Assembly: GCA_964035545.1 (NCBI GenBank)
Contig: OZ037767.1
Location: 3,798,707 to 3,862,706 of the forward strand
Source of the DNA: Bugula neritina
Lineage: Eukaryota > Animalia > Bryozoa
Direction: 5' to 3'
DNA length: 64,000 bases
Below the pieces are notes generated by a model. It saw nothing but the letters and a program-made list of their open reading frames with translations. It had not been told where the DNA came from and did not search any database. The translations under genes were made by a program, and so were the position numbers. The stretch's first letter is position 1, and every line of letters begins with the position of its first letter. Positions 11,861 through 35,223 of this stretch are shown here, one piece after another.

Positions 11861-14800
11861 CATCAACATTTACACATCTAGAAGTACGATCAAAATAACC
11901 AAGTTTTAAACACACGCTTGTTGGCAAAATAAAATAACGCATAATGATATTCTAGCTTCGTCTTACCTTACTACTAAGTTCCAACTCAAACTGTTTGGTT
12001 TTTCCTAAAATGCATGAGACTGAGTTGCATGGCAGGCAATTGTTTATTCGTCGTTCACATGCTCTGAAGTTTCCGTTTCCTATAAATTCGAACTGAGCAA
12101 TAGCGGTGGAAGTAGACAACTTCAATTTGCACAAAACAGCTGCGTGATAATATTTTAACTGTGTATTATAACGGCTTTCAATAATATGCAAAAACGTTAG
12201 ACTTGTTTTGTATTTTTACATAGTGTTTTTGTCTTGACACAATATTGACATTGAAACATTCTAGTCCAAAAATTACAGAGGACTTGAGATTTAATAGAAA
12301 ACAGTAAAAATCAACAGCTATGGCTTCACACAACTTCACAATAACTATATTGCAAATTAGGCAGTTGAAATTCTATGCATTTAAATACTTTAAAAACGAT
12401 GTTTCAAAGTAACTTATTCTCAAGTGTTGTGGACTATTTCAGAGTTGTGCACTAATAAAGAGAAGATAACTCAGCTATGTATAATGGGCCTTCAAGAGAC
12501 TTTTTAGTGGCTTTAGCTAAAAACTAACGAACATATTATATATAATTTTGTTGTTTATACATAATTCTTTAAAGGAATCTCTGAAAGTTTTTCAAAACTA
12601 ATACATCCATAAAGATTAGTCAATATTAATCAAATGGTATCATGCCTATGCATACCATAATCATATTGTAATTATTGCTATTTGAACTACATTGGAGCAA
12701 GCTTGTTATTGGATAGTAACAAGAAAGTTAACAGTTAGCATGTGACAAAGAGACACAATATTTGAATACAATAAAGGCTTAAAATTAAAACTTAAAATCA
12801 ACAAAGCTGTCCTGCTATTAGTTGGAGAATGGTTTTCCTTATTTTAGATATTTAAAATAATTGCCCCCACTGGGTTCAAACCACAGCAAGCAGGCACTAA
12901 CCAATCACACTACAGGGGCTTCGAGATTCCAAACAACAGAAATATTCAAGCTTACAGTCTACAAAATAGGAAGGCAATATTATGGTTTAAAAAACTGGCA
13001 TCCGTCAATGAATTTATGGAAGACACGCTTGGCCTTCCTCCACAATGAATTACTTATTGTTTGAGGAACATAATATTATTAGCATCTTTATGCTGAAGTA
13101 GATTTCGTAAACCTCTTTATTAAATCATCTTTCAAATATATACACTCACACATTATTTAAAACATGATTTACCAACAAGATTTACTTAGTCTACTAAGTA
13201 AAAGTTGCAGCATGACATTGGATTTATGTCCCCTTTTGATTAGAATATGGATTGAATGACAATTAGTAAAATCACGAGATTATTAGGAATGCTAGAGATA
13301 AACATTCAACATGTTTCAAAGTTCAAAAAAGCCCAAACAAATCAGGACACACTGGTACAAGAGTCATCAACTCAAACTAGTTTGACCCCAGTATCAATAT
13401 GAACTTTCACATCAGTATCTGTGGTTGTTAGTACCACTACTCAAATTATCAGTGTTGCTAGTAGTTATTTCTCCTCATCAACACTGAATCATCTTTAAAG
13501 CTGAATAGCCACATAAGGAAATCAATTCCTAGAGACCACCACTTGCTAGAATCTAGATAATCCCCATATCTTCCTGTAAATGTGACAATATGATTCAAAG
13601 GCCAACATCATTATGAACACAATCTTCGATAACTGAAGTTACAAAATCATTTAGTTAATATATTATGATATGCTTTATATAGAAATGGCAGAGGTGGAGG
13701 AATATTAGTATGAGTTACATCTTTACTGCTGCTACGCAAGTATATTAAAGATTAGCCAACACTGAACAGCGTGGAATGAAAGGTGAATATCACAATGCCT
13801 AATAAATACTAGACTGCAACTGCCAAGTGTAGTAATATAATATCTATAGAAGGAAAGGTCAAAAGCCTGCATAACAACTCATTAAAAGTAAGTTAGCAAC
13901 TGGAGGGCAGTAACTGTAAGCTTTGTTGGAAGTCATTGGAATAGAGAATAGTAACAGTAATTACTGGATTCAACGTGAATTATATAATTATGTTAATATC
14001 TTTTAATCATTTTTACATTTTAGCCCAAAACCTGATCATCAATACAACAATATTATTTGCAATGCCAGCAACTGGCAAAAGCTAGCTAAGTTTTATAAGG
14101 GTACCGATTATATTATAATATTATTGTACTGTAACCAAAATACCAGTGACTTGACTGCTACTAGTTGCATGAACAGAAAAATATTACTAAATAGTTCGCC
14201 TACTAAACAGAACTTCAGGAAGAGAGAGTTCTTTCCTTCTTTCTACAAGCCAAGAACTGACCACTGGCATAACCCACTGTTCTAAATGAAGGTTGGCTCC
14301 ATTGGATTACCAATGGACCTTCAGTTGGAATTGCACCAACCAGGTGAGGTCTGCCAATGACCTGAAAATTAACTATGAAATTGTATGTATAGCTATTCCT
14401 AAGGTTGTCAAATTATACCAGTTGAAGCAATTACTTTATCAATATGATCATAGTAATCTATAATGTTGAGCTCAATTAATATCATGCCACCAATATGAGT
14501 GAATACATAGCACATTTCCAATGAAGTTCATGATTATCCATATTCTGTATTCTACGGCAGATGGTAATTTTCCACTGAAATCTAGTTTCACCAACCTGAA
14601 GCTAAAGGAGCATTTACACTGTAAAACAAGCTTGAAATGTCAGCGTGGCTGGAAACCCCTATTCCCCGCCTACTTTACAATTGATTTTGTAATGCAACAT
14701 AATAAAAGAAGGGCAAACTTATCATACAGTAACAGCTAATAGATACCACAAAGTGTTACCTAGAAAAGTAGTTTATATCTAGCAGTTAATAATTGCTTAG

Positions 14801-15180
14801 CTAGGTGGAGAATTGGATTAAAATCATAACAGGTGCTTAGTATTGTTAGCTGTAGCAAAGAAGCATAGAAAATAATGTAAACTGCAGTTATCACAAGTCT
14901 GTCAAATGTGGCTTTAAAAATTGTCATCCAAAAGAGAATCATGTAAGCAGTAAGGGTATCCGAATAGCACCTCTGCTTCCTGCTGACTAAAATATGTATA
15001 TTCAACATCCAATAGAAACACAAGAAAGTTCTGCACCTGTTAAAATTGTAGTTTAACTATTTGGATATTTCTGAACTAGCCAATTTCAACATTTCACTGC
15101 TGGCTACGAAAATGTGACGTTTAAACATTATAGGAGAGGGTATGTAATTTTTGACTACAAGTCAACAGACATTTAATAAT

Positions 15181-18100
15181 TTTGTGCCCAAGCCACGTGA
15201 CAGACTGCAGTACAGAGTGTCACACAGCCCCAATCATTCACCCAAACATATAACTGAATGATTGCCACCACCCGGCTGCCGATACAATGCAGCCTCGCAA
15301 CAACATGTTTATTAAAAATGAACTAGAGGAGACGTAAAAACATGACTCACAGTTAAACTGTTTCTTCGCTATTTGTTTTAGATGTTGTCAGCTGAGAAGA
15401 AAGTACCAGAAACCATGGCGTAGCTGTGATAATGTAGATCAACCAATGAATAGGAGAGAACTTCATTGAGAAGAGATTACTTCATAGGACTGTGCTTTGG
15501 ATACTCTAAAACTACTTGATCAGACTACTCCCCCCCCCCCCCTCCAACAATGAAAATAGAAAATGCTTCAATATTTTACCGAGTTATTGTTATGCAGAAA
15601 TCAGATAATAATTGACAACTTACATCACGATGAACACTCATCAACCCATGGGGTGCCACTGTAACGGTGTGAGTATGTTAGAAGACCATTTTTCCTTTGC
15701 AATACTAGATTTATCAGCATGAACTGTTAAAACCTCTTCTTACTAGGGTTACTCTGAAACTACTCAACTAAAGACACATACCCTACATCTGTTCCAACAG
15801 TATAATTGATAGCATGTGGCGATTACGAGCTGAATGATGCGCTGCTAGTTCAAAACGAACAATGATTATATAAATTATATACTCACTAACTAGTTATGAG
15901 ACCTGTTCTCTCCTCTAGAGGGATTGAGAAACTGTGAAATTTTACACTTGCAACTAAATAGTGTGTGATGTTCCAAAAATTCATATTATGGACGATTTCT
16001 ATGGTTTTCAACCTAAGCCTGGCATAATCTTTCAATCAGAATGATTGGTAATACAGTTTTGTAAGAACACAATCAATACTTTGACAAGAGCACTGAATAT
16101 AATTGTATGGATTATAATAATATACCCCAGTTCGTTCACTTTTGCTATTTTGTCATTTTCATTGCCATCATCGCCAGGGTTCATAGAGCTAGCGCTGCAT
16201 CAGTTCATTTCAACATCAAACTGAACTTGTACAAACCAACAATATTTACTTCTTATGTATGTGGCTGTTTCCAACAAATTGCAGAGTAAGCATTCACAAC
16301 CTGAGGCAATCTGAAATAACTGGACTCAACAACAAAACATAGTTAACTAATTAATGGACATGCACCAGTATTAGCAGATTTTGCTATATTGAAGAATCTT
16401 GTAAATAACAGGTTGTAAAACTTAAACTGTTGGAAGAGAGTAACATGAGCTTTTACTAGCTTACTATTGCTGAAGTCAAAGAGATGAGCTGCAAGTTGTG
16501 CGCTGGATTGAGAGGCCATTATATGAACAGAGCCACAGTACGATATGACGCAGTTTACTGAAACAAGCCGGTTGCTGCCATTACTTGGAAACCACAGTAA
16601 AACTACCTCATAGATTATTACTACTTCTTCGTGGAGCTACTGAGAAGAGAAACCAAATAGTTATGTAATAATTTTGTGCCCAAGCCATGTGACAGACTGC
16701 AGTACAGAGTGTCACACAGCCCCAATCATTCACTCAAACATATAACTGAATGATTGCCACCACCCGGCTGCCGATACAATGCAGCCTCGAAAACAATTCG
16801 TAAAAAATAAGAAACAAATAGTAAAAAGTTACGAGATAAGAAGTTGCATTGCTTGATACTTGATAGCGAATAAAATACTTGATCTTTGGGAATGAGCATC
16901 AACCACTGAAGAACTCCACAGAGATTCTGTTGCTTCACGTGATATCAGCCACCAGATAGAGGAACAACTAGTCTAAGAGGAACAATTCTTCCTAGATACC
17001 ACCACTTCTCTGGAGCTGTTGCTTTGACTACTCTAAAACCACTTGTTCGTAAATTATGCCCCCCTCCCTTTCCCCGCACAAAACAAAACTAAATTAAAAA
17101 TTATATCCGTGAATTTTCTTTATGCAACACTCATTTGTGGAAATATATGTATATGGTTTTCATATGGAATGAAAAAGAATAACTTACTTCTTAAGAAGTT
17201 GTTTTAGAGACCTAGAATGCCAGAGGCGAGTTCAAAGTTTTGAGATATTGAGACAAACTACGAGTAGTACGGACTGTTGCATACTTCTGGTGGAGTTTTG
17301 TCTGCTCGAATGGATCTGAAACTACTGAAATAAAGACTACCCCTATCTAGAAGGCCTTATTTTACCATGTTTAAAAATATAAGCGTATCAACAAGAAATA
17401 TTCTTGGGGGAAAACCAAAAAACAACCATCACAAAGTGGACTAACTATAAAATCAACTAAATCAATACAGTATAGGTGAATAATATACCCCAGAAGTTAA
17501 CCAATTTGCAACATCAGTTGGGGAGAGCACCAGGCTTTCAGATAGAACACTTGGAGAATAATACTTGTGTAGCCCATCTAATTATCTGATCGATTCTAGG
17601 GAAGTAGAGGCATATCTCTAGAGTATGTAGTAATTTTCAGCCAGTTACAGAACTTGAGTTGACAATTCGAAAATCAATCTGAAAGAACTAAACTCAACAC
17701 AAGACGAAATGCATTACGTTCGGCTGCATGCAAAATAATCATCAAATTCAACACTGTCACCACAGTAATCGAGTAAATGGCTTTATATGTTATGTTGTAT
17801 TACCTCAACCTTAAAGTTCTGTGCTTATAACGTTCACAATGCTCTTATTAAAGTTATTTTGATGTGTACTTGATTAAGATAAGGCAGTAGAATTTGGAGA
17901 TGATACAATCGATGTTCGACATAATGGCAACTTGTTTCCACAGAATACGTATTTCTTCACTGTCACTTGGAAAACGCAATAAGACTACCTCGTATGTAAC
18001 TAATCTTTCCTGCAACTATTCTGAAGAAACACCAAATAGTTATGTAGTACTTTTGTGCCCAAGCCATGTGACAGACTGCAGTACAGAGTGTCACACAGCC

Positions 18101-21100
18101 CCAATCATTCACCCAAACATATAACTGAATGATTGCCACCACCCGGCTGCCGATACAATGCAGCCTCAAAAACAATCCGCAAAAAATAAGAAACAAATAG
18201 TAAAGAGTTATGAGATAAGAAGTTGCATTGCTTGATACTTGATAGCGAATAAAATACTTGATCTTTGGGAATGAGCATCAACCACTGAAGAACTCCACAG
18301 AGATTCTGTTGCTTCATGTGATATCAGCCACCAGATAGAGGAACTACTAGTCTAAGAGGAACAATTCTTCCTAGATACCACCACTTCTCTGGAGCTTTGA
18401 CTACTCTAAAACTACTTGTTTGTAAATTATGCCCCCTCCCTTTCCCAGCACAAAACAAAACCAAATTAAAAATTATATCCGTGAATTTTCTTTATGCAAC
18501 GCTCATTTGTGAAAATATATGTATATGGTTTTCATATGGAATGAACAAGAATAACTTACTTCTTAAGAAGTTGTTTTAGAGACCTAGAATGCCAGAGGCG
18601 AGTTCAAAGTTTTGAGATATTGAGACAGACTACGAGTAGTAGGAACTGTTACATACTTCTGGTGGAGTTTTGTCTGCTCCGGTGGATCTAAAACTACTGA
18701 AATAAAGACTACCCCTATCTGGAAGACCTTACTTTACCACCAAGATTAAAAGTATAAGCCTATCAACAAGAAATATTCTTGGGGAAAACCAAAAAACAAC
18801 CATCACAAAGTGGACTAACTATAAAATCAACTCAATCAATACAGTATAGGTGAATAATATACCACAGAAGTTAACCAATTTGCAACATCAGTTGGGGAGA
18901 GCACCAGGCTTTCAGATAGAACCTTTGGAGAATACTTGTGTAGCCCATCTAATTATCTTTTCGATTTTAGGGAAGTAGAGGCATATCTCTAGAGTATGTA
19001 GTAATTTTCAGCCAGTTACAGAACTCGAGTCGACAATTCGAAAATCAATCTGAAAGAACTGAACTCAACACAAGACGAAATGCATTATGTTCGGCTGCAT
19101 GCAAAATAATCATCAAATTCAACACTGTTATCACAGTAATCGAGTAAATGGCTTTATATGTTATGTTGTATTACCTCAACCTTGAAGTTCTGCGCTTAAA
19201 ATGTTCACAATGCTCTTATTAGAATTATTTTGATGTGTACTTGATTGTCAAGATAAGGCAGTAGAATTTGGAGATGATACAATCGATGTTCGACATAATG
19301 GCAACTTGTTTCCACAGAATACGTATTTCTTCACTGTCACTTGGAAAACGCAATAAGACTACCTCGTATGTAACTAATCTTTCCTGCAACTATTCTGAAG
19401 AAACACCAAATAGTTATGTAGTAATTTTGTGCCCAAGCCATGTGACAGACTGCAGTACAGAGTGTCACACAGCCCCAATCATTCACCCAAACATATAACT
19501 GAATGATTGCCACCACCCAGCTGCCGATACAATGCAGCCTCGAAAACAATCCGTAAAAGAAAAGAAACAAATAGTAAAGAGTTATGAAATAAGAAGTTGC
19601 ATTGCTTGATACTTGATAGCGAATAAAATACTTGATTTTTGGGAACGAGCATCAACCACTGAAGAACTCCGTAGAGATTATGTTGCTTCACGCGATATCA
19701 GCCACCAGATAGAGGAAGAACTAGTCTAAGAGGAACAATTCTTCCTAGATACCACCACTTCTCTGGAGCTGTTGCTTTGACTACTCTAAAACTATTTGTT
19801 TGTAAATTATGCCCCCCTCCCCTTCCCAGCACAAAACAAAACCAAATCAAAAAATTCTACATAGATTTTCTTTGGTACAGACTTGAACTTTATGCACTTG
19901 ATTTTTCATGTAAAATGAAGAACTTACTTCATAAAAAGTTGTTTTAGAGACCTAGATTGCCAGAGGCGAGTTCTAAGTTTCTAAAGGGAAGTTTACTCTT
20001 GCTTCGAGATATTAAGATAAACTACGAGTAGTACGGACTGTTGCATACTTCTGGTGGAGTTTTGTCTGCTTGAGTTGATCTGAAACTACTGAAATAAAGA
20101 CTACCCCTATCTGGAAGACCTTACTTTACCACTATGATTAAAAGTATAAGCCTATCAACAAGAAATATTCTTGGGGAAAACTATAAAATAACCATCACAA
20201 AGTGGACTAACTATAAAATCAACTAAATCAATACAATATAGGTGAATAATATACCACAGAAGTTATCCAATTTGCAACAGCAGTTGGAGAGAGCACCAGG
20301 CTTTCAGATAGAACACTTGGAGAATAATACTTGTGTAGCCCATCCCAATATTTGATCAAATCTAGGGTAAATGCATATCTCTAGAGTTTGTAGAAATCTT
20401 CAGCTAGTTGTAAAACTTCAATTGACAATGTGAAAATCAATCTGAAAGAACTGAACTCAACACAAGACGAAATGTATGTTATGTTCAGCTGCATGCAACA
20501 CTGTTACGACAGCAATCAAATAATTAATGGTTGTAGATGTTATGTTGCATTACCTCAACCTTGAAATGTTTGTGACAAAACTTTCATGATGTTTTTATTG
20601 AAGTTATGGTGCTGTGAGCTGGACTATCAGGATAGAGCTAACAGAATTTAGAGATACAATTGACGTTGGGCGAAATAACAATTTGCTTCAGCAGAATGTT
20701 TGAAGCTTGGGTCACTTGAAAGCCGCAGTATTTCCTGTAACTATTCAGAAGAGAAACCAAATAGTTATGTAATAATTTTGTGCCCAAGCCATGTGACAGA
20801 CTGCAGTACAGAATGTCAACACAGCCCCAATCATTCACCCAAACATGTTACTGAATGATTGCCACCACCCGGCTGTTTACAGCCTCAATAACAATCTATG
20901 AGAAGAGAAACAAATAGTAAAAAGTTACGAGATAAGAAGTTGCATTGCTTGATACTTTATAGCTAATAAAATACTTGATCTTTGGGAACGAGCATCGATC
21001 AGTGAAGAACTCCACAGAGAATCTGTTGCTTCACGTGATACCAGCCACCACCAGACAGAGGAACAACTCTTTTAAGAATAACTTTTCCAGGAGGCCACAA

Positions 21101-24100
21101 TGTGACAGGATTTGCTTTGGATACTCTGAAACTACTTGATTGGAGATAATGCCCCCCCTCTTCCCCCGCACAAATTGCAAAACCAAGTGATTTCAGAATT
21201 TTATAAGTTTTATTTTACATATATTACACTTCTACCTCTGATACACTCGTAGTTTAACTGAAATACACAAAAAGAAGAACTTACTATAAGATAAGTAGTT
21301 TTGGTGGTGTAACATGACAGAATGCAGTGAGTCAAGGTTCTGGAGACACCATCTGTGCCTTGTGGATAATATGATAATCCATTGGAAAACATTTCTCTAA
21401 GCTTCTGTCAACTTGGAAAAATCTGAAACTACTCCACAAAACACACGATGTGTCTACCCCTATTTGGAACTTATGAAAAATCTTAGTATAAGCAATGGAG
21501 TAACTTATTCTTAATAGGCACACAAGAAATCAAAAGATTCAACTGGTAGAATGTGTTACCTCAATAAACTAGGTGAACGAATGTAGTTTTTATGTAGTAC
21601 TACCCCATAGTCGAAACCTGTGTGTGCAGAATTCCCATTTTCATGTTATTGAAGTTTTTGGACGAAGTCATATGTACTGGATTGCTAGTCAGCTACACTA
21701 CATCAAGAGCACTTGCATAAATTGGGATGACATTTCTCCTGTCACTAGTCGTAGCAAAGTCCCAAGACTACTTTCTCCTGTAACTATTCCAAAATGAAAC
21801 CAAATAGTTGTCATAATTTTGTGCCCAAGCCATGTGACAGACTGCAGTACAAAATGTCAACACAGCCCCAATCATTCACCCAAACATATAACTGAATGAT
21901 TGCCACCACCCGGCTGCTGGAATAAACAGCCTCTGGCCAATTGTTCGTTGAACAACTCAAGAAAAGAGCTGAGTAAAATGACTTACATTTAAATTGATTC
22001 ATCATTTGTTTTGTATGTTGTCAGCTGAGAAGAATGCATCAGAAATCATGGTGTAGCTGTGATAATGTAGATCAACCAATGAATAGGAGAGAACGTCATT
22101 GAAAAGAGATTACTTCATAGAACTGTGCTTTGGTTACTCTAAAACTACTTGACCAGAATACTCCCTCCTCATTGCACGATGGCATAAAAAAATTTTCAAC
22201 TATTTTAAGAATTGTCATGTAGTTGCTCACCAATGTGCTGCATACTCGTACATAGTTGGTAATAGAAATGCTCGCCATAAGATATTCAGTTTTCGCATAT
22301 CAAGTAGAACAGTCAACGTAACAGTGTGCTGGCATGTCTTGAAGACAGTAACAGTCGGAACTAGTCGGAACTGCTGAATACTTTCCATAAATTCTTTTTA
22401 CTAGGGTTACCCTGTAACTACTCAACTAAAGACATACCCTACATCTTTTACAACAGTATATTTGTGTGTGGCAGATTACAATGCAAGCTTAATGGTGTGC
22501 TACTATTTTGTAGTGCCCAAGGTTGTATAACTTGTATACTCACTAATTGGATGTGCAGTTGAGACCTTTCTTGAAAAGATGTGAAATCTACATGTATGTG
22601 AAGCTGAATGACGTAGACTGACCTGTGTGTTCAGAAGGCTAGACAATTCTGCTGTTTCAAACCTAAACCTGGCATTTTTAAGTCAAACTCACTAACATCT
22701 CTCGAGGAAAATAAAATGATGATTTTGAAGCGTGCAAGCAATGACAATTGTATGAACAATATACCGCGGTTTCTCCTTTCTGGAATTAGTGATTCACAAT
22801 GTCTTCATCACCAGAGCTCATAGATAGGCACCCATTTCATCCACTGAGTAGGCAACAATTAAGACGTACTTGCAATTTTCAACCAAGAGAAAGTGTGTTC
22901 ATAACTTGGGAGTCAATCTGAAAGAACTGGACTCAACAAAGCGAGGCAAAAGGTTATATGCTCAATTTCAATTGTTGGGAGCAGAATTATTAGTACTGAA
23001 TTACTTTATTAAACGAAATGACTCAACGTAGAACATGCGTTACCCATACTAGGAAGTTTCAGCTGATCGTGCTTACTGCTCTATGCCTTGAGAGGTCGCC
23101 AGTTGCTGGTCTAACACCATACACAAGAAGCCAAAATAATGCATCCAATTGGAAGATGTAGTGCGATCTAATCAGCTTTTCCTGGAACTATTCAGAAGAA
23201 ACACCGAATGGTTATGTAGTAATTTGTGCCCAAGCTGTGTGACAGACTGCAGTACAGAAAGTCAACACAGCCCCAATCATTCACCCAAACATATAACTGA
23301 ATGATTGCCACCACCCGGCTGCCGATACAATGCAGCCTCAATTTTTTTTAGCAATTTCAAGGTATAATGAAAGGAGAGCATGGAAGACTTACGTTTTGTG
23401 AGTATTCAGTTTATAGGCCATCAGTTGAGAGAGACGCATCGGAAATTATCGCATAGTTTTGGAAACATCAATTAACGAGTAGGATCGAAACGCCTCGGAA
23501 ACGAATGATGCTTTAGTTACTCCTAATTCTAAAATTACTGGACTAGCAACATACTCCTTGATAGCAGTATAACTTATGCTCGTACTCAACTTGACTTATA
23601 AATAAAATTAATATGCTGCCCGATTTGCATAAACGTGGTATGGTTTCATGCTCATGAAAACTGGTAAGACTTACACTACGTTGAACAGGTTTTAGGCCAC
23701 AGGATGCACGATGTGAGGATAAATTTTTGTAAGACGTAGACTTGTGCCTGGAGATGGTAGTCCAATGAGAACACTTCAAAAATTTCTTTCTGCTACGATT
23801 ACTCTACAACTACTCAACCAACAAACACGGCAACCTATCTCTTTACGCCACCTTACTTTGTAGTTTTGCTCTTTCATATAATACAAGTTAAATAGTGTTA
23901 ACAGTATTTCTATAAAACTATATACTCACTAATTTGTTGTGTGGGTATAAAACCCTGATCACTTCCATAGTGTCAGAAATCAGAAATTATAGATGCATGT
24001 GAAAATAGGTGGTGTATGCTGTTAGGCCACACTTTTAGATGCTGAACAATTTCTGCTGTATTGTACTTAAACCTAATAAGCTTTATAGTCCAAACATATT

Positions 24101-24714
24101 CATCGATGAAAATTTTGTAACATTCAAGTATGCAAAAATGTAGACTTGACTGAAATTAGTAGGTATATATGGATAATATGCATGTTTACTTTCCGGAAAT
24201 CTGGTAAAGGCTGCCATTATCTAGATTTGGTATGGAGTCTAACATCCTAGATCTGAATAAAAGCTGACAAACGAGGTGCACTCTCGGCAATTCTTAACCA
24301 ATCACAGGTATACTGAAAACGCGGAAGTAAATCTGAAACAATCCAATTCAACACAAAACGAGGTTATATTACGAAATACCAACAATCCTATCGTGTAAGC
24401 TGTTACCTTAGTAAAATATGTGAACGGTAGACTTTTGAAACACCTGTAACTTGTGATTCTTTATTTGGTTGGGAAGGCGCACATAAATTGGAATAAGAGA
24501 ATTTCTTTCATCACTATTGGTTGTTGAAAAGCCATCTAATACATGACTGCTTTCTCCTGCAACTAATCAGAAGAGACGAAAAATAGTTATGTAGTAATTT
24601 TGTGCCCAAGCCACGTGACAGACTGCAGTACAGAGTGTCACACAGCCCCAATCATTCACCCAAACATATAACTGAATGATTGCCACCACCCGGCTGCTGA
24701 GACAATGCAGCCTC
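15181..24714 (-). repeat. Tandem array of ~1.38-kb units, each marked by a near-invariant ~116-nt structured element (8 copies)
   Basis: Elements at 15181-15296, 16672-16788, 18051-18167, 19425-19541, 20776-20886, 21817-21933, 23223-23339 and 24598-24714. Units between ~16.8 and 20.8 kb are recent near-identical duplicates; the other units are diverged except at short motifs. Confidence 0.92.
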
Positions 24715-25195
24715 TTACACACTCTTGCTTATTTGTCTAATGCATGTAAAGGATGCCCATATTTATAAATTTATAACATATCTACACAAACTATCTGCAC
24801 ACACAGCCATATTGGCTGCCTGACAAAACACGCCAGCTTAAACAGCCAGTAGTTATAGCTGAGCCCACAAGTTCTATTAAAGTTTAGCCAAAACAATAGC
24901 AGAGCTATGAACACTTATAAACAATATAGAACTAGGTATGAATGAACAGGTGAAAAGAACTATATCAACATGGAATTAATATCCAAGTGGTGCTACAATA
25001 TGACCAATAAGCCTTAACCAATACTACAGTGAAGAAATTTCAATATCAAAGAGTAAAATAATAAGATAAACCAAACACACAATTACAGACTATATAGTAC
25101 CAGAGTGAGCATTCGTTATAAAATTCAATTACAAAGCAATGGTTAATGTACAGATGTCGAATAATAGGAGGGAAGTAGACAGCTAGTTAGAAACA

Positions 25196-28109
25196 TTCCG
25201 ATCACACTCTGAGGTAGTCTCATGGGACCGTACTAGTGCAAATAAATCAGTTACAGTCGTCAACTAACTTCAAACATACAAGCAAGAAACACCGGCTGCT
25301 GGTCTGGAAAACAGACATTACAGACATCTTTCGCTTTTTTGAGAAACGTTCTGCTGAGCATAGGTAATATGACTAAGGTTGACCAGCTGAAAATTTGAAA
25401 CAAAGTGGAAAATCCTTACCACAAAATATCAGTTGGAAGCTTCCTCTTCCCATAAATCCATGCAGTATGTGAACCCAAAGGTAAATAGAAAACAATAGAT
25501 AGCGCCACATACAATTTGGTGCCAATTCCAGAAACAAGAAATTAGTGAGGGTACTTAACTAAAGTCTATGTTAGAAGGTTGGTATGACAAAAAGGTTGGT
25601 GAATATCGTGGATAGAAACTCTTTAAAATATTAGATTAAATTGCAAACTAAAATCAAAGTTAATAAGTGACGGGAGGTGGAGATGCTGGAAGTGCAAATA
25701 TAGTTGTAAGAATAACTGCCAGTAGTGTGCTACAATCATGCTGGATAATTTCCCTTACACAGCTTACAAGACACTGCCAGGTTGAGATATAGGGAAAGCT
25801 TCAGTTAAGTAGAAAATAGCGATGGGACACAGGAACACAGCTGAGTGATCAGAATACAATTAGCAGCAAACAATATCCATTAACACAACTAGAATTAGCT
25901 GACAGAACTGGAACAGTTAGTTGACTAAAGTGTCTAAATGAAACAATAAGAATAGAGTTGCTGCAAGATAGATGGGAGCAAAACTTTCCGATCGCACATG
26001 GGTTACCCCAAGGGACCGTACTTAAACCAAGTGAGACAACTAACAGGTAGCATATTAGAATACTTAGCAAGAATATGCAGTATAAATATACCAGACTGTT
26101 ATGGTGAGCGGGAGCACAGTGTAGATGTGAAGGTTTGAAATTAGCAATTACATCATGGATGAGAGCATAGCAAATAGACAATACGCAGTGAAGTTTAACC
26201 AACTAATCGGCATAAAAGTTGAGGGCTGCATGCAAGACAAACTTAGAAAAACACACAGAATTGAAGACAAAACTTAACCGCATGAGGTAAACTTTGTGGC
26301 ATCACGTGATGAGCAAAAAATCAATGCAGATCCAATGACTAACAACTCATTGAATTTTAATACATGATTTTACTGATATGGCAAGCAGTTATACACCTCT
26401 TTAAAAAGCAGAAAGATATCAATTAATGATAATAGTTGGCAATGATGAACCATTAAGCCCTTGCACAAGTTTGATCTAGAACAAAAACAGATTAAGCTGC
26501 AGTAGTAAGCTAACCGTCTAGGCAACTAAAAGCAGTTTCAGACATTGAATCATCAGCGAATTTTTGAAACAAGTTAGCAAAAACACCCAACAAAACTGTA
26601 CTGGCACACTTCGGATTGTTGAATAATAATTAGGTACAAAAAGCATCACCCTTTATATCTAATACCTATGCATTGCAAAAGTTAATTGATGGCAAATCAT
26701 ATTATTAAACTACCTTGGGAATCAGGTGTGCTTGAATAGAAAATAGTGCGGGCCTTTCCGATCACACCAAGGGACCGTACTTGAGCCATGTAGGTGGAGA
26801 AACATTCTCTAGAACTACTTACAGCAGATATTCACCATGTACACGAGAGTAGAGGTCTATTAACAGAGCAGTATAGCAGCTGGTTATTCAGCAGAGAAAG
26901 AAAACTGCTACTTCTAAGAGAGCGTCTTGCCAGAACAGTTAACAGCAACATTTGCCAGGATTGGACAGTGGAGGAATAAAGAAGTACACGTGTAGGATCA
27001 GCGAGAGTCAACACAGCAACAGCAGGGCTGATGAATTTGATTGTGGGAGATTAGTCTACAGAATATCACCAGGAGGCACATGCAAGGCTTTCAGTTTTGG
27101 CACAGAGTTGTCCAACGGTAACAAAGCTATTTCAAGACTTGAAAATTGTGATAGGTGAAAAATGTAGCTGTAGTTTTTTTTAGCAGACTAAGAAAACTGG
27201 CTTCAAATGTCAATCATAGGTAATGCACTTACAATATGCTGTTGACAAGGCTTAGCAAGAAGGTATACATGAATTAGTACCCATCTCAAGATTGTTGGCA
27301 ATCTATCCATTTATAAGTTATTAAAAAACGTTTCACTCTGGAGAGCTGAGTGAGTAGCCCAATGCAATACGACAATCCATCATGCAGGTAAATTGAAGCT
27401 GTGCTCAACAGACAACCATTTCAACAATGAGCAAAATAATCATTAAGATCTACCACTACTTTGTCAGTTCTAAAAATATTAAATAAACAAACACATATTG
27501 AAGGTAGAAACAGTTGCAAACAGAAAGTTGGCTTTGCATTTTGAGTTATGGTGCTTGCAGCTTGTTTAGTGAAAAGGCTACCTTCCGATCACTCAAAGGG
27601 ACCGTACTAGGGTTATTCAACCGCATACCAACATAAATCAAATTGTGTTGTTTTATATCTGGCATGTTAACTTCAGCCAACTTTTAATTATATGATAGAC
27701 AGAAGAAACACAAAAAGACAAGAAAACATTTTAACTAAAGTATTAATAAAACTTCATTACAAAGAGACATACACTGCAGTAGTTATGAGCAGCAAACGGG
27801 GCTCTAATAGCAATTTAGTCCATACAGAAATAAAAAATTATAATAGCGTGACAGGAATAATTGGAACATGGGAATGGTTCGCAGTGTGGTTGGCAATGGC
27901 ACATGCAAAATAGCTTTGAAAAACTACTTGGATATTAATGATTGCATTGTAAGAAAAATACTTGACAATCAAAGGCAAAAGAGCAGCAGTAGCTACTACG
28001 GGTAGAGTGATATAAGTAGGTGTGGTTAAATACTCAAGTGAGAACCAATTCCGATCACACAAGAACCAGCAGCACCAGAGAAGAAACCACCAGTTCAAGG
28101 GACCGTACT
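25196..28109 (-). ncRNA. Five copies of a loop-E-like structured RNA motif (AGUA-CGGUC-CC[variable]-GAUCG-GAA)
   Basis: Copies at 25196-25234, 25986-26022, 26756-26781, 27583-27608 and 28049-28109. On the plus strand each reads ttccgatc...gggaccgtact, with unrelated flanks and a variable self-complementary insert. Confidence 0.65.
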
Positions 28110-30229
28110 CTGTACCGAGTGTTACACAATTCTGTTCTATTCTTGTTAGACGATACAACATCAAAGCAGCAGCACAGCAGCCATCTACTTCTTAGAACTG
28201 ATAGGAGGGAATTGTATTCATAAGTCTAGAAGCTACCGGACGGACGGTCATCGCTCAAGCACAACAGCTAGACAGAGAGAGAGATAGAGGGTGTCCGTTG
28301 AGTTAGCTATGAAATAGAGTTAACCAAAACAATCCAAACAAAGTGAGTGAGAAAATAAGGTTTGGCCAATTTTAAAGAAAAGCTGTGAACCTTACAAGTG
28401 TCGATTAAGAGGCATGCTGAAGGGTTATAAGATCATACACACAGGGTTCGCATAGCCTAGAAAAATCACAAAATTTAGCTAAGCTTCCATTCTATGCTAC
28501 CGCCAAAGTAAATAAAAGAGATGTAATTATCACCAGAATCTAGCAGTGTTTAGAAGCATACAAAGAGTGGTTACTGAAAAATACATTGTTTACAGTTTAG
28601 GAAATTTGTGATATCAGCAGATAAAAAAATCTTTATAGCTCGCTTGTGCATTGCAATAACTAAACTAGCCAATAATTAAAACACGGAAATGGCATTATAT
28701 CAAACATAGATTAGAAACACCAAACACAACTAATTATTGAAAGTTACAATTAGGCAAATAAGACCGAAAGTGACAACAGATGGCAAGGAAAAGTACCTGG
28801 TTCTAGACATAGGACTGGGTCACAAGTCAAAGAATTAAATTCAATTCACCATTTCCACCAAAGCACTTAACTAGCTAATGCATTGTGGATACTTGCAATA
28901 GAATTGCCTCCTTCACCAATATTTTTCATTCATAGGAAGGGCTTCAATATGCAAGTGGATCGAAGCCATTGATTTATTCTGATTCTGCTTTTTGTATGGA
29001 GGGGTCATAAATTTAATAAGAGACAACATCGCCAAGTTAGAACTTAACCATGCACATAGTGAGAGGCTTTCAGGAAACATTCACATAGCTACAATAGAAA
29101 AAAAAAACTTTTTTCAGACTTGGGATTGCATTGTGGGGTTGTAGAATTCTTGAGCATCAAGGAAATGATGATCCAAAACATGGTTGCTTCTAGATTCCCA
29201 TTTTATTTAGCTGATGCGATTGAAGGCCAAAACTATTTTTAAAGTTCCAAGTGATTTTGCATCAACAAAAAGTTGTAAAAGACAACGAAGCTTTTCTTGG
29301 TTTCAGCATTGAGCGCCGTTCGTCTTAAATTCATCTGTAGGTAAGGTAAAAAACCATAAAAAATAAATTTACTTTTAATGATTCTTAAAATTAGCTCCAA
29401 CAAGCTACCCCAGGAAAAAATTTAATTGCGTCAAATTTATGATCACTTCTGTACATTAACGATAGTTTTACCAAAATTTAACTCTGTATTTGTGCTTTAC
29501 AGTTGCAGCTATCGACTCGGAACACTTTAAATCACAAAACTTTTCATGACTTAAGCTAGGTTTGTTGAATTTGAAGCAAACTAAAATAACTTACAGAGTA
29601 ATATAAAATCAAATTTAAAATTGAATATAGTTTATATACTAATAATACACCAAATTGAAATCTAATGCTTATGCATACTTTCAACTGCTACACTAACACT
29701 TATTCTTACTGTTAACACTAAGTCCAACAGTAACAGTAACACTAATGACTAACTAGAACTAGAATTAGAATTATTGAATTTGATAAACCTACACTGACAG
29801 GCTACAAGTACATTTCACAACTAAAACTTTTAGTTTTAAAAAAGTTAACTAAAAGTAAAACTAATAAAATAATCATAATTTAAATTACAATGATGATAAT
29901 CAAAACATGAACACTAATCATAAAAATAACTCTAAATGATTACTAACTCATCATGATCAGATTCAAAATGATATTCATATTCATATTGATAATCATTATC
30001 ATAAACTTAAAGAAACTAGAAAGTATTAAGTAGAAACTGAAAGTCAGTCAAAGTTACCAAACTCAAACTGCTTCTGTGGTTTGTAACAACCCATGTCAAT
30101 ATTTCCATCAAATATTGAAACATAAACAGCTGAGTACAACAGGAACATTACAAATGATGGATAAGTTTTTTGTTATACTAAAAAGAAACAATATTTCATA
30201 ATTATAAAGAAATGAAAACACTATTGCAC

Positions 30230-31948: not shown

Positions 31949-34900
31949 TTACATCAGCAATTCATCATCCATATTAGCTGCGGCCATATATGCATCTAAT
32001 TCATTGTCCAATGAAGACTTGTTAGCTGTATTAGCTCCGCCTCCTCTCCCACCACGTCGAGCGCCACGCCCCCTGCCTCTTACAGCACCTCTCCCACCTC
32101 TACCGGTACCTCTACCCCTACCACCACGCCTGTGTAACAATGAATGGCATTCATCATATAGATATGCACACATATATATACCTATAATATAACTTATTGA
32201 GTACAGTTGTGGACATGCTGCAAGTGGTGCACGGGTTTACCATACTTCACGAAAAACCCTGCAACAGTAGAAAATATTTACCACAGCCTAGTAGAATTCT
32301 ACAAAGCACAACCTCATTTTCTAGGAAACATAAAACCTGCTACATTCATAGGAAGCATGTGCTAGGTGTGAGAATGACATATTGATTTACCCCCTTGAGT
32401 TTTCAAATGTCATAGATTGTTGAAAGCCTTCTCTAGATCCGCCCCTGAATGCTCCTCGCCCGCGACTGACACCTCTTTGGGGCCCCATAGCTGCACCCCT
32501 TCTACCTGAATCAGGAAAATCATGCTGTCAACATTCAATTTCCTAAACTTAGATATAGTCTTAATGAATTTTAGAATTATCACTTACAACAGTTAAAGAT
32601 ATTTACAACAGGTGATAGCATAGTTAATGGGGTTATAAAATGAGAGAGATGTTGATAGCCTTTGCTAGCTAAAGCTGATATGGCGGGCAGTTGGTAGGAC
32701 CCCCTCTCTCTTCTGTCAGAGTGATAAGATACCGTACGCAGATATCGCCAGTAAATTCCTTCTTTAAAACATGACACCAACTAACAGTACGTGCATTTGT
32801 TGTGAAAAATCAACCAACCTCCACGTCCTCTCATAGACACGCCCCTTCCTCTTCTAGTCACTCCCCCTCGACCTCTTGGAATACCTAGTCTCTCTATAAA
32901 AGACACGGGACAAACAAATAGAGAGCTTGGTTATAAAATGTCAAAACATCTTAAGACACTTACTACTACAAGTTGAGGATTGATTGTAATACTAGCTATA
33001 TTATGTTAGATGCTATACTCACTATACTATGTTAGATGCTATACTAAGTTAGATGCTATAATAGGCTAGATGCTATACTACTTTAGATGCTATACTATGT
33101 TAGCTGCTATACTATGTTAGCTGCTATACTAGGTTAGCTACTCTACCTTTCACATCAGATACTGGTGAAGCCAGAGCGGCACCACCGCGAGGACCCCCTC
33201 GCCCTCCCCTGCCTCTGCCACGCAATGTCATGCGGGACCTGAGGGCAGGCCTCCTGCTTGCCGGGGCTCCCCTCCCTCTACCAGAGAAAGATGGCCGTCC
33301 GTCTCCAGCACCACCTCGGCCAGAGGGCTCTGACTTGACCTATTTAGTAGAAAGGAATTCATGTTACATAGTGATAGCCTGTGAGAATATAATTATTCAT
33401 TCTCTTACCTGACTTACTCTATTATGAACACAACTAAACAATGCATTGGTATTGCAAATGGAGTGTACGTATTTAAAATCTAAAATGTTGAAACATCTCC
33501 GAAGTTATCTTCTCGTAAACCATAGCAAACTTAAGCTATAGAACTTCAAGTATTACACAGAATATCACTTAGAAAAGGCAAGTCAATGTCATACCAACTT
33601 TACAAAGTGATATGACAGCGATGTAAGTTTACAGCTGGTAACATTCTACTTAAAATTAGCAGAATAACTTGGCAATTACTAAACACCAGGAAATAAGAAC
33701 CATTAGAAGAGGCGTATTTTACTACTTAGCATAGCATAGTCTATTTCAACAAGAATAATGACATTGTTTCTATAGTTGGTGAGATGTACATTTCTACAAG
33801 AGATTAGTTGATTCCAAGGTGAAGGTCTGAGCCATGGTGCTTTCTTCTGATGTAAAGACAACTCCAAATAATAATCATCTGAATAAATGTAAAGATAATG
33901 CTAGTTGATTAGCTACCAGAGAATGCCGGTTTCTAGCGAGTACAGATAATGACATAATAACCCGTACCTGGGAGGAATTTCCCAATGCTAGCTGCACACT
34001 CGGCCGGTTGGCCATCTGCGCTGCCAGTCTTCTGTTTTTTGCCGAGGCTTGCTGCTGAAGGATCCTCTGTTGCTGACTTTGCTTCTGGCGGGCATCTTGC
34101 TGGGCTGGTGTCGGTTTGGGCAGCTTCTGGAACCTGCGAGTCAAGGTCGTTTAACATGCACACCACGAAACTTAGAAAAGTGAATCCCTATTGGTCAGCT
34201 TACAACAAAACTTAAGATCTTATTGGTCAGCAAACTGCATTAGAGCTGCCAACCTGTTGGGGTGATTAAGGAATACACAGTCCTTATAAAAACACACACT
34301 TATTAGAGTTCATATTCCCATAAAGTTGTGTTTTAATATACATTATTTTTTACTTCAAATCAGCAAATAAATGCCAAGAGAGGCAGTTTTATCTGTATGA
34401 AGACGGTTTTGGAAAGGTGAGGATTTATTTCAGCCATAGAACTTGGCACAATGGTAGCCTCTGCCACACAAGTATTTGCAATAACACGACAGTATTACAG
34501 CAAACAGGGTGAATGGCTACACAATATGATATTCACCCAAAATTCTACACGCTAATAGTTTTGTACCAACTCTTGGTGGTGAAGTCAAATGAGGCCACTC
34601 ATTGGTGCTTGGTGAAAGAATTACAGGTTTTAACGCCAGTCAAATATAGGAGAAAATAACTCCTGCATCTATGATGTAAGCGTGTTTTGCTTGCAATAGA
34701 ACATGGCATACAGCATGTGACCATTTTACCAGAGTAACTGAACTGTATATGTATCAAGTCTTAGGTTCATATCCCAGACAGACCTGTAATGAGTCAGAGC
34801 TGACACCACACTGCAAGTGCTTGTGAGCTCTCAGAGATCAGATAGATGCAAGAGAAAGCAAACTTATAATTATTAGAGAATCGTGAAGCAGGTATGAACC

Positions 34901-35223
34901 AGAAAGCCTCTACTCTATTAGCATACCAGATGCTACGAGTTTGACAAGCTGCTTGGCTTAGCTGCTACGGAAAACAGTAAGTCAGCTGGCAGTTTTCTGC
35001 TTTTGATTGGTGCATTTTTTGGTTATAATGTAACCAACCAATCACAGCTTTGCCTTATAAATCAGGTTATCAATGATGAAATCATTGACCATATTGCTGA
35101 ATACATGTTCCGTATAGGATCAGTGTAGACCTGATCTACAGTTAGCTTGTCACCTCACCTTTCATTCAATGAAATTCTTGAAGTGCCTTCGAGCACTAGC
35201 TTAACAGGCATATTACTTGCCAT
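31949..35223 (-). CDS. CHTOP: Chromatin target of PRMT1 (CHTOP/FOP), RGG-rich mRNA-export cofactor
   Basis: Exons 35223-35159, 34133-33968, 33339-33147, 32893-32819, 32504-32391 and 32129-31949 join in frame. N-terminus MASNMPVKLVLEGTSRISLNERF..QQQASAKNRRLAAQMANRPSVQLAL, central RGG/GAR region, C-terminal UAP56-binding-type motif SLDNELDAYMA. Confidence 0.93.
33000..33140. repeat. 17-bp minisatellite in a CHTOP intron
   Basis: Repeated unit gttag(a/c)tgctatactat, about 7 copies. Confidence 0.8.

Follow-up and report, generated by a model that had tools for sequence, protein, structure and literature searches.

Conserved, mostly unspliced splice-signal look-alikes in a repeat array of Bugula neritina: a candidate architectural long non-coding RNA

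Introduction

In the long non-coding RNA (lncRNA) hsr-omega, a single intron is followed at about 700 nucleotides (nt) by a first termination site, and a UAG-rich nonamer to which hnRNPs bind is maintained in diverged repeats (10.1101/695486). In Gomafu, branch-point repeats are kept in an exon and bind SF1 (PMC3116199). Decoy exons bind U2AF yet splice poorly (PMC6097662), and U1 motifs hold lncRNAs on chromatin (10.1101/310433). Here, we analyze a repeat array of the bryozoan Bugula neritina which, as judged from our analysis, would work most like hsr-omega and Gomafu. It lies in a stretch of 64,000 nt (the window; assembly GCA_964035545.1, contig OZ037767.1, positions 3,798,707 to 3,862,706), to which all coordinates refer. 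The window is animal DNA, with a GC content of 25-41%.

A first-pass annotation of this DNA had reported that the repeat units share splice-site-like motifs but neither exon sequence nor reading frame. It had read the array as a host gene of the GAS5 type, with 4-5 short introns per unit. Host genes of this type have non-coding, spliced exons that are not conserved, and a structured RNA with C/D or H/ACA layout resides in a short intron. The observation is confirmed, and the interpretation is partly supported.

Transcription and Splicing of the Array

Assembled contigs show that the locus is transcribed from the minus strand, that two introns are removed, that most splice-signal look-alikes are passed unspliced, and that a long open reading frame (ORF) is absent. 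Contigs covering parts of 15100-25000 come from 20 sequencing runs of 8 studies, labelled as biofilm, symbiont and marine samples. In 13 of the 20 runs, X20 not among them, the contigs hold shares under 0.2 of the stretch. Eight runs were compared with the window. Seven are RNA-type runs from five studies (two recorded as RNA, five guessed), while the eighth (X20) is of unknown kind and DNA-like. X20 represents the haplotype of the window. A site is called bridged when, among the pieces listed, one runs unspliced across it with at least 31 nt on either side.

The first intron has 490 nt (28307..28796). Its joint (28306/28797) occurs in three of the four runs of the first contig set (X1, X6 and X8). 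It reads CT..AC on the plus strand and is thus a GT-AG joint of the minus strand, which is therefore the transcribed strand. The first mapped exon is 28797..29088; a shorter form, which ends at 28897 and uses a GC donor, is represented by joint 28306/28897 in X6. Downstream follows a long exon-like stretch (21987..28306) with units 1-2, the first two copies of a 116-nt repeated element (element A) and five copies of a second element (element B). It is covered by long unspliced pieces that are interrupted only within the repeated element, although no single piece spans the whole (X4: 24671-27789; X6: 25822-28306; X10 and X11: about 23298-24650; X8, X11 and X14: 21987-23281). Upstream of the array, such pieces cover 24671-28306.

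The second intron, also GT-AG, is the sole splice seen inside the array. It has 203 nt (21784..21986) and contains copy 3 of element A (21815-21933). Study P6 shows the joint from 21987 to 21783 in the long contig of X8, and study P4 in that of X11, where it is a 30-nt end; pieces in X6, X10 and X14 end exactly at 21783 and/or 21987. A deletion in the DNA is an unlikely explanation, since X4 runs into the intron although it has two indels in common with X8, and since X20 lacks the joint, with the caveat that X20 is of the window haplotype. The first-pass annotation had placed the element in an intron of about 210 nt. This holds for copy 3, and the predicted donor (21986) is the one in use. The acceptor is AATAG, 6 nt before the predicted NCAG|G, so that the AG in use is the first one. 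Unspliced contigs run from both sides into copies 1 and 2.

In the pieces listed from the RNA-type runs, 19 of the 27 acceptor-like sites are bridged, as are 9 of the 12 donor-like ones. The sites of units 1-2 are bridged in three to four studies each. The same runs contain the GT-AG joints 28306/28797 and 21783/21987 and thus report splicing where it occurs. In the contigs of the seven RNA-type runs, the array has no further joint. Joints with a backward step or a skip of 1371-2735 nt, which amounts to one or two unit lengths, were rejected as repeat artefacts. Removal of four to five introns per unit, as originally proposed, is therefore not what the assembled RNA shows, and of the junctions predicted only one donor was found in use. 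X20 has skips of 2161 nt (15970-18161) and 60 nt (23443-23504), and unit number or structure may differ between haplotypes.

The mapped mature form has 7.2 kb. Its longest ATG-initiated ORF has 107 amino acids (aa), which is within the range of shuffled sequences (median 77, 95th percentile 120). When all donor-acceptor pairs are joined in silico, the stop-free stretch never exceeds 104 aa, so the splicing of exons into a long ORF, which would have argued against a host gene, is not seen. The segments between motifs have 125-155 nt and keep no frame. Stops in all three frames had been reported for two of them and occur in 9 of 10. The transcript is thus without a long reading frame.

An AATAAA (21209..21214, minus strand) about 570 nt past the 203-nt intron, with a GU-rich tract after it, is a likely proximal poly(A) signal. 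RNA contigs end at 21132-21258 (X14 at 21191, X1 at 21199), while X20 continues to 20967. Together, this is a weak hint at a poly(A) site near 21190. Contig depth is lower below about 21.1 kb, and there is no cover at 13084-14835 (four runs) or 14600-14956 (three RNA-type runs); neither was used as evidence.

Splice-Signal-Like Motifs

The acceptor-like motif has the consensus ARUAGUUUCAGR and occurs four times per 1.4-kb unit. The 27 minus-strand copies (15506..24568; 26 found by pattern, plus the one at 24557) have their last G at 24557, 24333, 23804, 23529, 23182, 22918, 22412, 22139, 21778, 21423, 21126, 20735, 20442, 20080, 19786, 19384, 19050, 18688, 18406, 18010, 17679, 17316, 17033, 16631 (CAC), 16311, 15754 and 15506. 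The motifs listed by the first-pass annotation are present at the positions given there, all on the minus strand, which had not been specified. Several differ by one to three letters from the forms quoted (17029 CAAGTGG..; 19783 CAAATAG..; 21123 ..TTTCAG; 18687 ..TTTTAG; 22408 ..TTACAG|G; 23801 ..TTGTAG; 16308 AGTTAT..; 24331 GATTGT..). The three related acceptor classes are real but form, together with the NCAG|G class, a single motif.

A strict pattern for this motif has 17 matches on the minus strand of the array, as compared to a mean of 0.15 (maximum 2) in 200 dinucleotide shuffles, and one occurrence outside 15.1-24.8 kb. The count is inflated by a recent duplication of units 4-6 (86-96% alike), and 14 copies are in older, diverged units. 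Between diverged units, the motif cores are 82-91% alike, the exon-side flank only 25-35%. Across classes, the copies have 65% in common in the core (a figure which includes one coordinate that is off by one) versus 24-32% around it. Once the element and the motifs are set aside, identity between old units is close to that of shuffled sequence for most pairs (57-65% versus 54-64%). Splice-signal-like conservation without exon conservation had been the central observation, and it stands: motif cores are kept, and no long ORF is.

A second AG precedes the last AG by 4 or 7 nt in 25 of 26 motif copies, which may make them poor acceptors. Among acceptors read from two neighbouring coding genes (not RNA-checked), none of nine has an AG within 17 nt upstream, a count that leaves out four off-target rows (7152, 10444, 10852 and 46008). 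The sequence (G/A)U1-3AGU is present in 17 of 26 copies. This is the Musashi1 selection consensus, and the class-a motif has ten letters in common with the numb site printed in the same source (PMC6152312). From sequence, we consider this match to be a lead.

Donor-like hexamers (consensus GURAGU) alternate with the acceptor-like motifs at matched places in diverged units, as had been described. There are 12 position-matched sites on the minus strand (15345..23929), with the G of GT at 23929, 23674, 23392, 22543, 21986, 21284, 19927, 18559, 17187, 15886, 15623 and 15350. GTRAGT by itself is only mildly enriched (13 copies, a number reached by 9 of 200 shuffles, the mean of which is 7.0). The hexamers are 89-100% alike, versus 27-33% deeper in the would-be intron. 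In units 3-6, pairing is predicted between the stretch just 5' of GTAAGT and the class-a motif that follows about 150 nt downstream (17033-17209, 18406-18580, 19786-19948 and 21126-21305). Such pairing would close the would-be intron and hide its acceptor.

Assembled transcripts bridge most look-alikes but drop one short intron of the array, so these sites are likely docking sites rather than cut points. We see an even balance for and against the reading that we favour, namely an lncRNA of repeated modules, comparable to hsr-omega and Gomafu, in which kept and mostly unused splice signals likely bind splicing factors. Several points weigh against it. The identity figures are partly circular, as the copies were anchored on the motif. 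The 3' half of the motif, with its free position -4, fits a true acceptor, the normal consensus of which includes such a free position. Motif cores are no more single-stranded than the background (0.42 versus 0.45). The spacing of the alternating donors and acceptors (about 120-205 nt) is intron-like, as expected of a real multi-exon gene. Among the pieces listed, 8 of the 27 acceptor-like sites have no bridge, nor do 3 of the 12 donor-like ones. X10 and X11, from two studies, both stop at 15625, beside the donor at 15623, which is a weak hint at another splice. The data are contigs, which drop rare isoforms and show neither strand nor level nor location, and five of the seven RNA-type runs are RNA by guess only. 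Six of the seven represent a haplotype that is several percent diverged (e.g., 67 differences in about 1180 nt), and its splice signals may differ from those of the window.

The main alternative is a multi-intron non-coding host gene. Use of the sites would then be confined to an isoform that is rare, stage-specific or quickly degraded, the assembled RNA would be a detained precursor, and 200-nt introns would give rise to the element as a stable small RNA. Removal of the intron with copy 3, the similarity of the donor hexamers, the contig ends at 15625 and a usable donor in 20 of 26 intervals (in silico) are consistent with this. Rare or conditional splicing at the look-alikes may have escaped notice, since contigs drop rare forms. 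The unspliced passage across most sites, with only that one joint inside the array, argues against such a host gene, as do the nature of the element and part of its surroundings. GTRAGT had been noted about 50 nt 5' of the element; it is present, at 53-54 nt, upstream of three of eight copies (2, 3 and 8), in favour of a host gene, and missing in the other five, which speaks against one. Downstream, a conserved branch-like tract and acceptor region follow seven of eight copies, again in favour. The NCAG|G of this region was thought to vary only at N, but copy 7 is followed by CCAC|G, and copy 8 by no acceptor. The element has neither an Rfam match nor a box D nor an H-hairpin-ACA arrangement (see below). 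On balance, we regard a host gene as a serious but rather unlikely explanation.

The 116-nt Element

Element A occurs in eight copies, 92% alike by column and about 1.0-1.5 kb apart, and has no further copies in the 64 kb. All are on the minus strand. Copy 1 (24599..24714) has three predicted hairpins and no donor upstream. The GTAAGT 53 nt upstream of copy 2 (23222..23339) is bridged unspliced in three runs. Copy 3 resides in the removed intron. Copies 4 to 7 are at 20774..20886, 19426..19541, 18052..18167 and 16673..16788, and copy 8 (15181..15296) has a GTGAGT 54 nt upstream.

The predicted fold is based on folding energy and on changes that keep pairs. The folding z-scores are -2.3 to -4.3 for five minus-strand copies and -4.6 for one plus-strand copy; G-U pairs and pair-keeping changes favour the minus strand. 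In the three hairpins, 270 of 272 cells of predicted pairs stay paired. Covariation is not significant (reached by 103 of 500 shuffles), and one pair changes on both sides.

Rfam has no match at gathering score in the 64 kb. At E<=10, the region 13-31 kb has only a single chance match (E 3.8, 28120-28220), which is outside element A. Box D is present in none of the eight copies, and a box C word with one mismatch in three of eight. H/ACA layout is also absent, with no hairpin between the H-like and ACA words; these are 5 nt apart and follow the last hairpin. The element thus has no snoRNA layout. In metagenomes, 32 loci match the pattern of hairpin 2, but none resembles element A beyond the pattern, and none matches 15.0-29.2 kb by blastn. 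A candidate relative on a viral contig (one locus) was discarded as a chance match of a 19-mer.

The loop region of hairpin 3 (e.g., 18069-18076) contains an 8-nt palindrome that is unchanged in all eight copies. Four G-runs are also kept in the element. A dimer formed via this palindrome is predicted to be only 8 kcal/mol better than two monomers and is a lead only. In hairpin 3 and the tail, two short words of 10 and 8 nt are separated by 26 nt. The same two words are adjacent in a MIR core oligo given in PMC6344866, where they form the start of the core.

Element B and the 5' End of the Transcript

Element B consists of AGUAC-GGUCCC, a variable hairpin and GUGAUC-GGAA. Five minus-strand copies are found within 25196-28109 (28049..28109, 27583..27608, 26756..26781, 25986..26022 and 25196..25234, for copies 1 to 5). 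There are 22 invariant columns, including AGUA and GAA, around a short predicted stem with a free loop. This resembles a bulged-G motif. Element B has no Rfam match, and no viral locus matches it. In a low-depth contig of X4 (26050-28090), the flanks of the element B 3' half are different ones; this contig is perhaps from a related organism or a paralogue. Such joints in metagenomes often stem from other organisms.

The 5' limit of the RNA contigs coincides with a strong 3' splice acceptor on the minus strand (29088..29110), with a U-run and TAG at 29091-29089. For this reason, 29090 was dropped as a transcription start. The matching pieces of X4, X6 and X8 stop at 29090. Beyond it, X4 has a loose end of 25 nt and X8 one of 15 nt; these leaders differ but have their last four letters in common, and X6 has exactly four extra letters. 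The two leaders were searched in the window and not found there. The simplest reading would be trans-splicing, but each leader comes from a single contig.

Leaders are detectable as soft-clipped 5' tails at an acceptor (PMC7986045). If trans-splicing were common at this locus, the look-alikes could be trans-splice acceptors or a sink for spliced-leader particles, and the locus would be a downstream member of a polycistron led by CHTOP, cut into unit-sized RNAs by leader addition. The two leaders, with their shared last bases, and the excess of acceptor-like over donor-like sites (27 to 12) point in this direction. Yet, among the rows listed, none of the 27 motifs has a leader-type loose end, and each leader may be a distant cis-spliced exon or allelic sequence. 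We consider trans-splicing across the array to be very improbable.

The array could also be what is left of an old multi-exon unit that was tandemly duplicated and is decaying, with the signals as relics, the element kept by gene conversion or derived from a transposon, and the RNA as CHTOP read-through of little function. Recent duplication of units 4-6, the words shared with the MIR core and the position of CHTOP, 2.5 kb upstream on the same strand, would all fit. Read-through agrees poorly with an RNA that has its own processed 5' end, and drift would not spare motifs of 6-12 nt amid old units that are near shuffled. The nearly complete maintenance of pairs in element A and the five copies of element B, kept with free loops, speak against decay as well. 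A mere leftover is thus improbable.

Neighbourhood of the Array

The array is the 3' part of a minus-strand transcript between a CHTOP-like and a FoxN2/3-like gene, both also on the minus strand. The CHTOP-like gene (about 31950-35220) has a FoP_duplication match (E 1.2e-9). The other neighbour has a forkhead exon, for which FOXN3 is closest (E 1.2e-7).

On the minus strand, 12870-12940 is a short relic resembling a tRNA or a short interspersed nuclear element. Contigs of three runs match part of it and continue with tRNA-like letters. The window has no second copy of this relic, and no tRNA genes were found in it. The region 37800-64000 consists of three tandem copies of a 9-9.7-kb block, in which a Nup98-like FG/GLEBS piece is accompanied by a B-box-like piece and an ORF of 320-340 aa. 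A small literature search, restricted to open papers and partly aimed at a presumed taxon, returned no description of the locus, its elements or its leaders.

Comparison with Known Systems and a Proposed Mechanism

The locus has features of architectural lncRNAs: it is long and largely unspliced (with no single contig spanning all of it), has no long ORF, and keeps a short motif in diverged repeats. Drosophila hsr-omega (omega speckles) has the same layout, with a unique 5' part, an intron, a termination site 600-700 nt further on and diverged tandem repeats in which a short UAG-rich motif is maintained. The likeness proposed is one of layout. Here, a unit measures 1.4 kb and comprises four acceptor-like motifs and one structured element of 116 nt. 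Gomafu (MIAT) likewise keeps exonic repeats of a splice-signal look-alike across divergence. There, it is a tandem branch-point heptamer, whereas the sites here are of acceptor and donor type, are spaced at about 340 nt and include one pair that is in actual use. Decoy exons such as those in SF3B1 intron 4 are conserved non-coding cassettes with rarely used splice sites. They occur in introns of coding genes, while the present sites are arrayed in a non-coding transcript. Hosts of the GAS5 type share with this locus non-coding, non-conserved exons without a conserved long ORF and, with copy 3, a short intron that contains a structured RNA. They differ in that, at this locus, most introns are not removed in the assembled RNA, short exons are mostly not found spliced together in contigs, the same element is repeated, and a C/D or H/ACA layout is absent.

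If the array acts as a repeat-module lncRNA, copies of GURAGU would pair with U1 snRNP, a small nuclear ribonucleoprotein, and the UUNYAG half of the acceptor-like motif would be a binding site of U2AF. An AG or UAG is located 4-7 nt upstream; it may attract a protein of the hnRNP A/B or Musashi type and thereby spoil acceptor choice. About 40 such sites and 13 structured elements could keep the RNA nuclear and concentrate these proteins, as hsr-omega and Gomafu do. A short form would be produced by splicing of the 203-nt intron and polyadenylation near 21190, and a long form by read-through, which would include the rest of the array.

A more far-reaching proposal is an independently built nuclear-body lncRNA with three repeated modules: the 116-nt three-hairpin element, the bulged-G-like hairpin and the array of paired, unused splice sites. 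It would titrate U1, U2AF and UAG-binding proteins and carry a spliced-leader cap downstream of CHTOP, and splicing of the element-containing intron together with poly(A) choice would set the number of modules. In its full form, this proposal is unlikely, and we put it forward tentatively.

Conclusions

The locus provides internal replicates, with 8 copies of element A, 5 of element B and 27 of the short motif. Two structured RNA motifs without an Rfam family are added. If the leaders are trans-spliced, they mark trans-splicing in this animal. If the reading that we favour holds, the locus would be an example of an entire array of splice signals that selection maintains although splicing does not use them. 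To our knowledge, it is mainly in flies and vertebrates that architectural lncRNAs with repeated modules for protein binding have been described. Should the nuclear-body proposal be true, a marine invertebrate would have evolved such an RNA apart from both.

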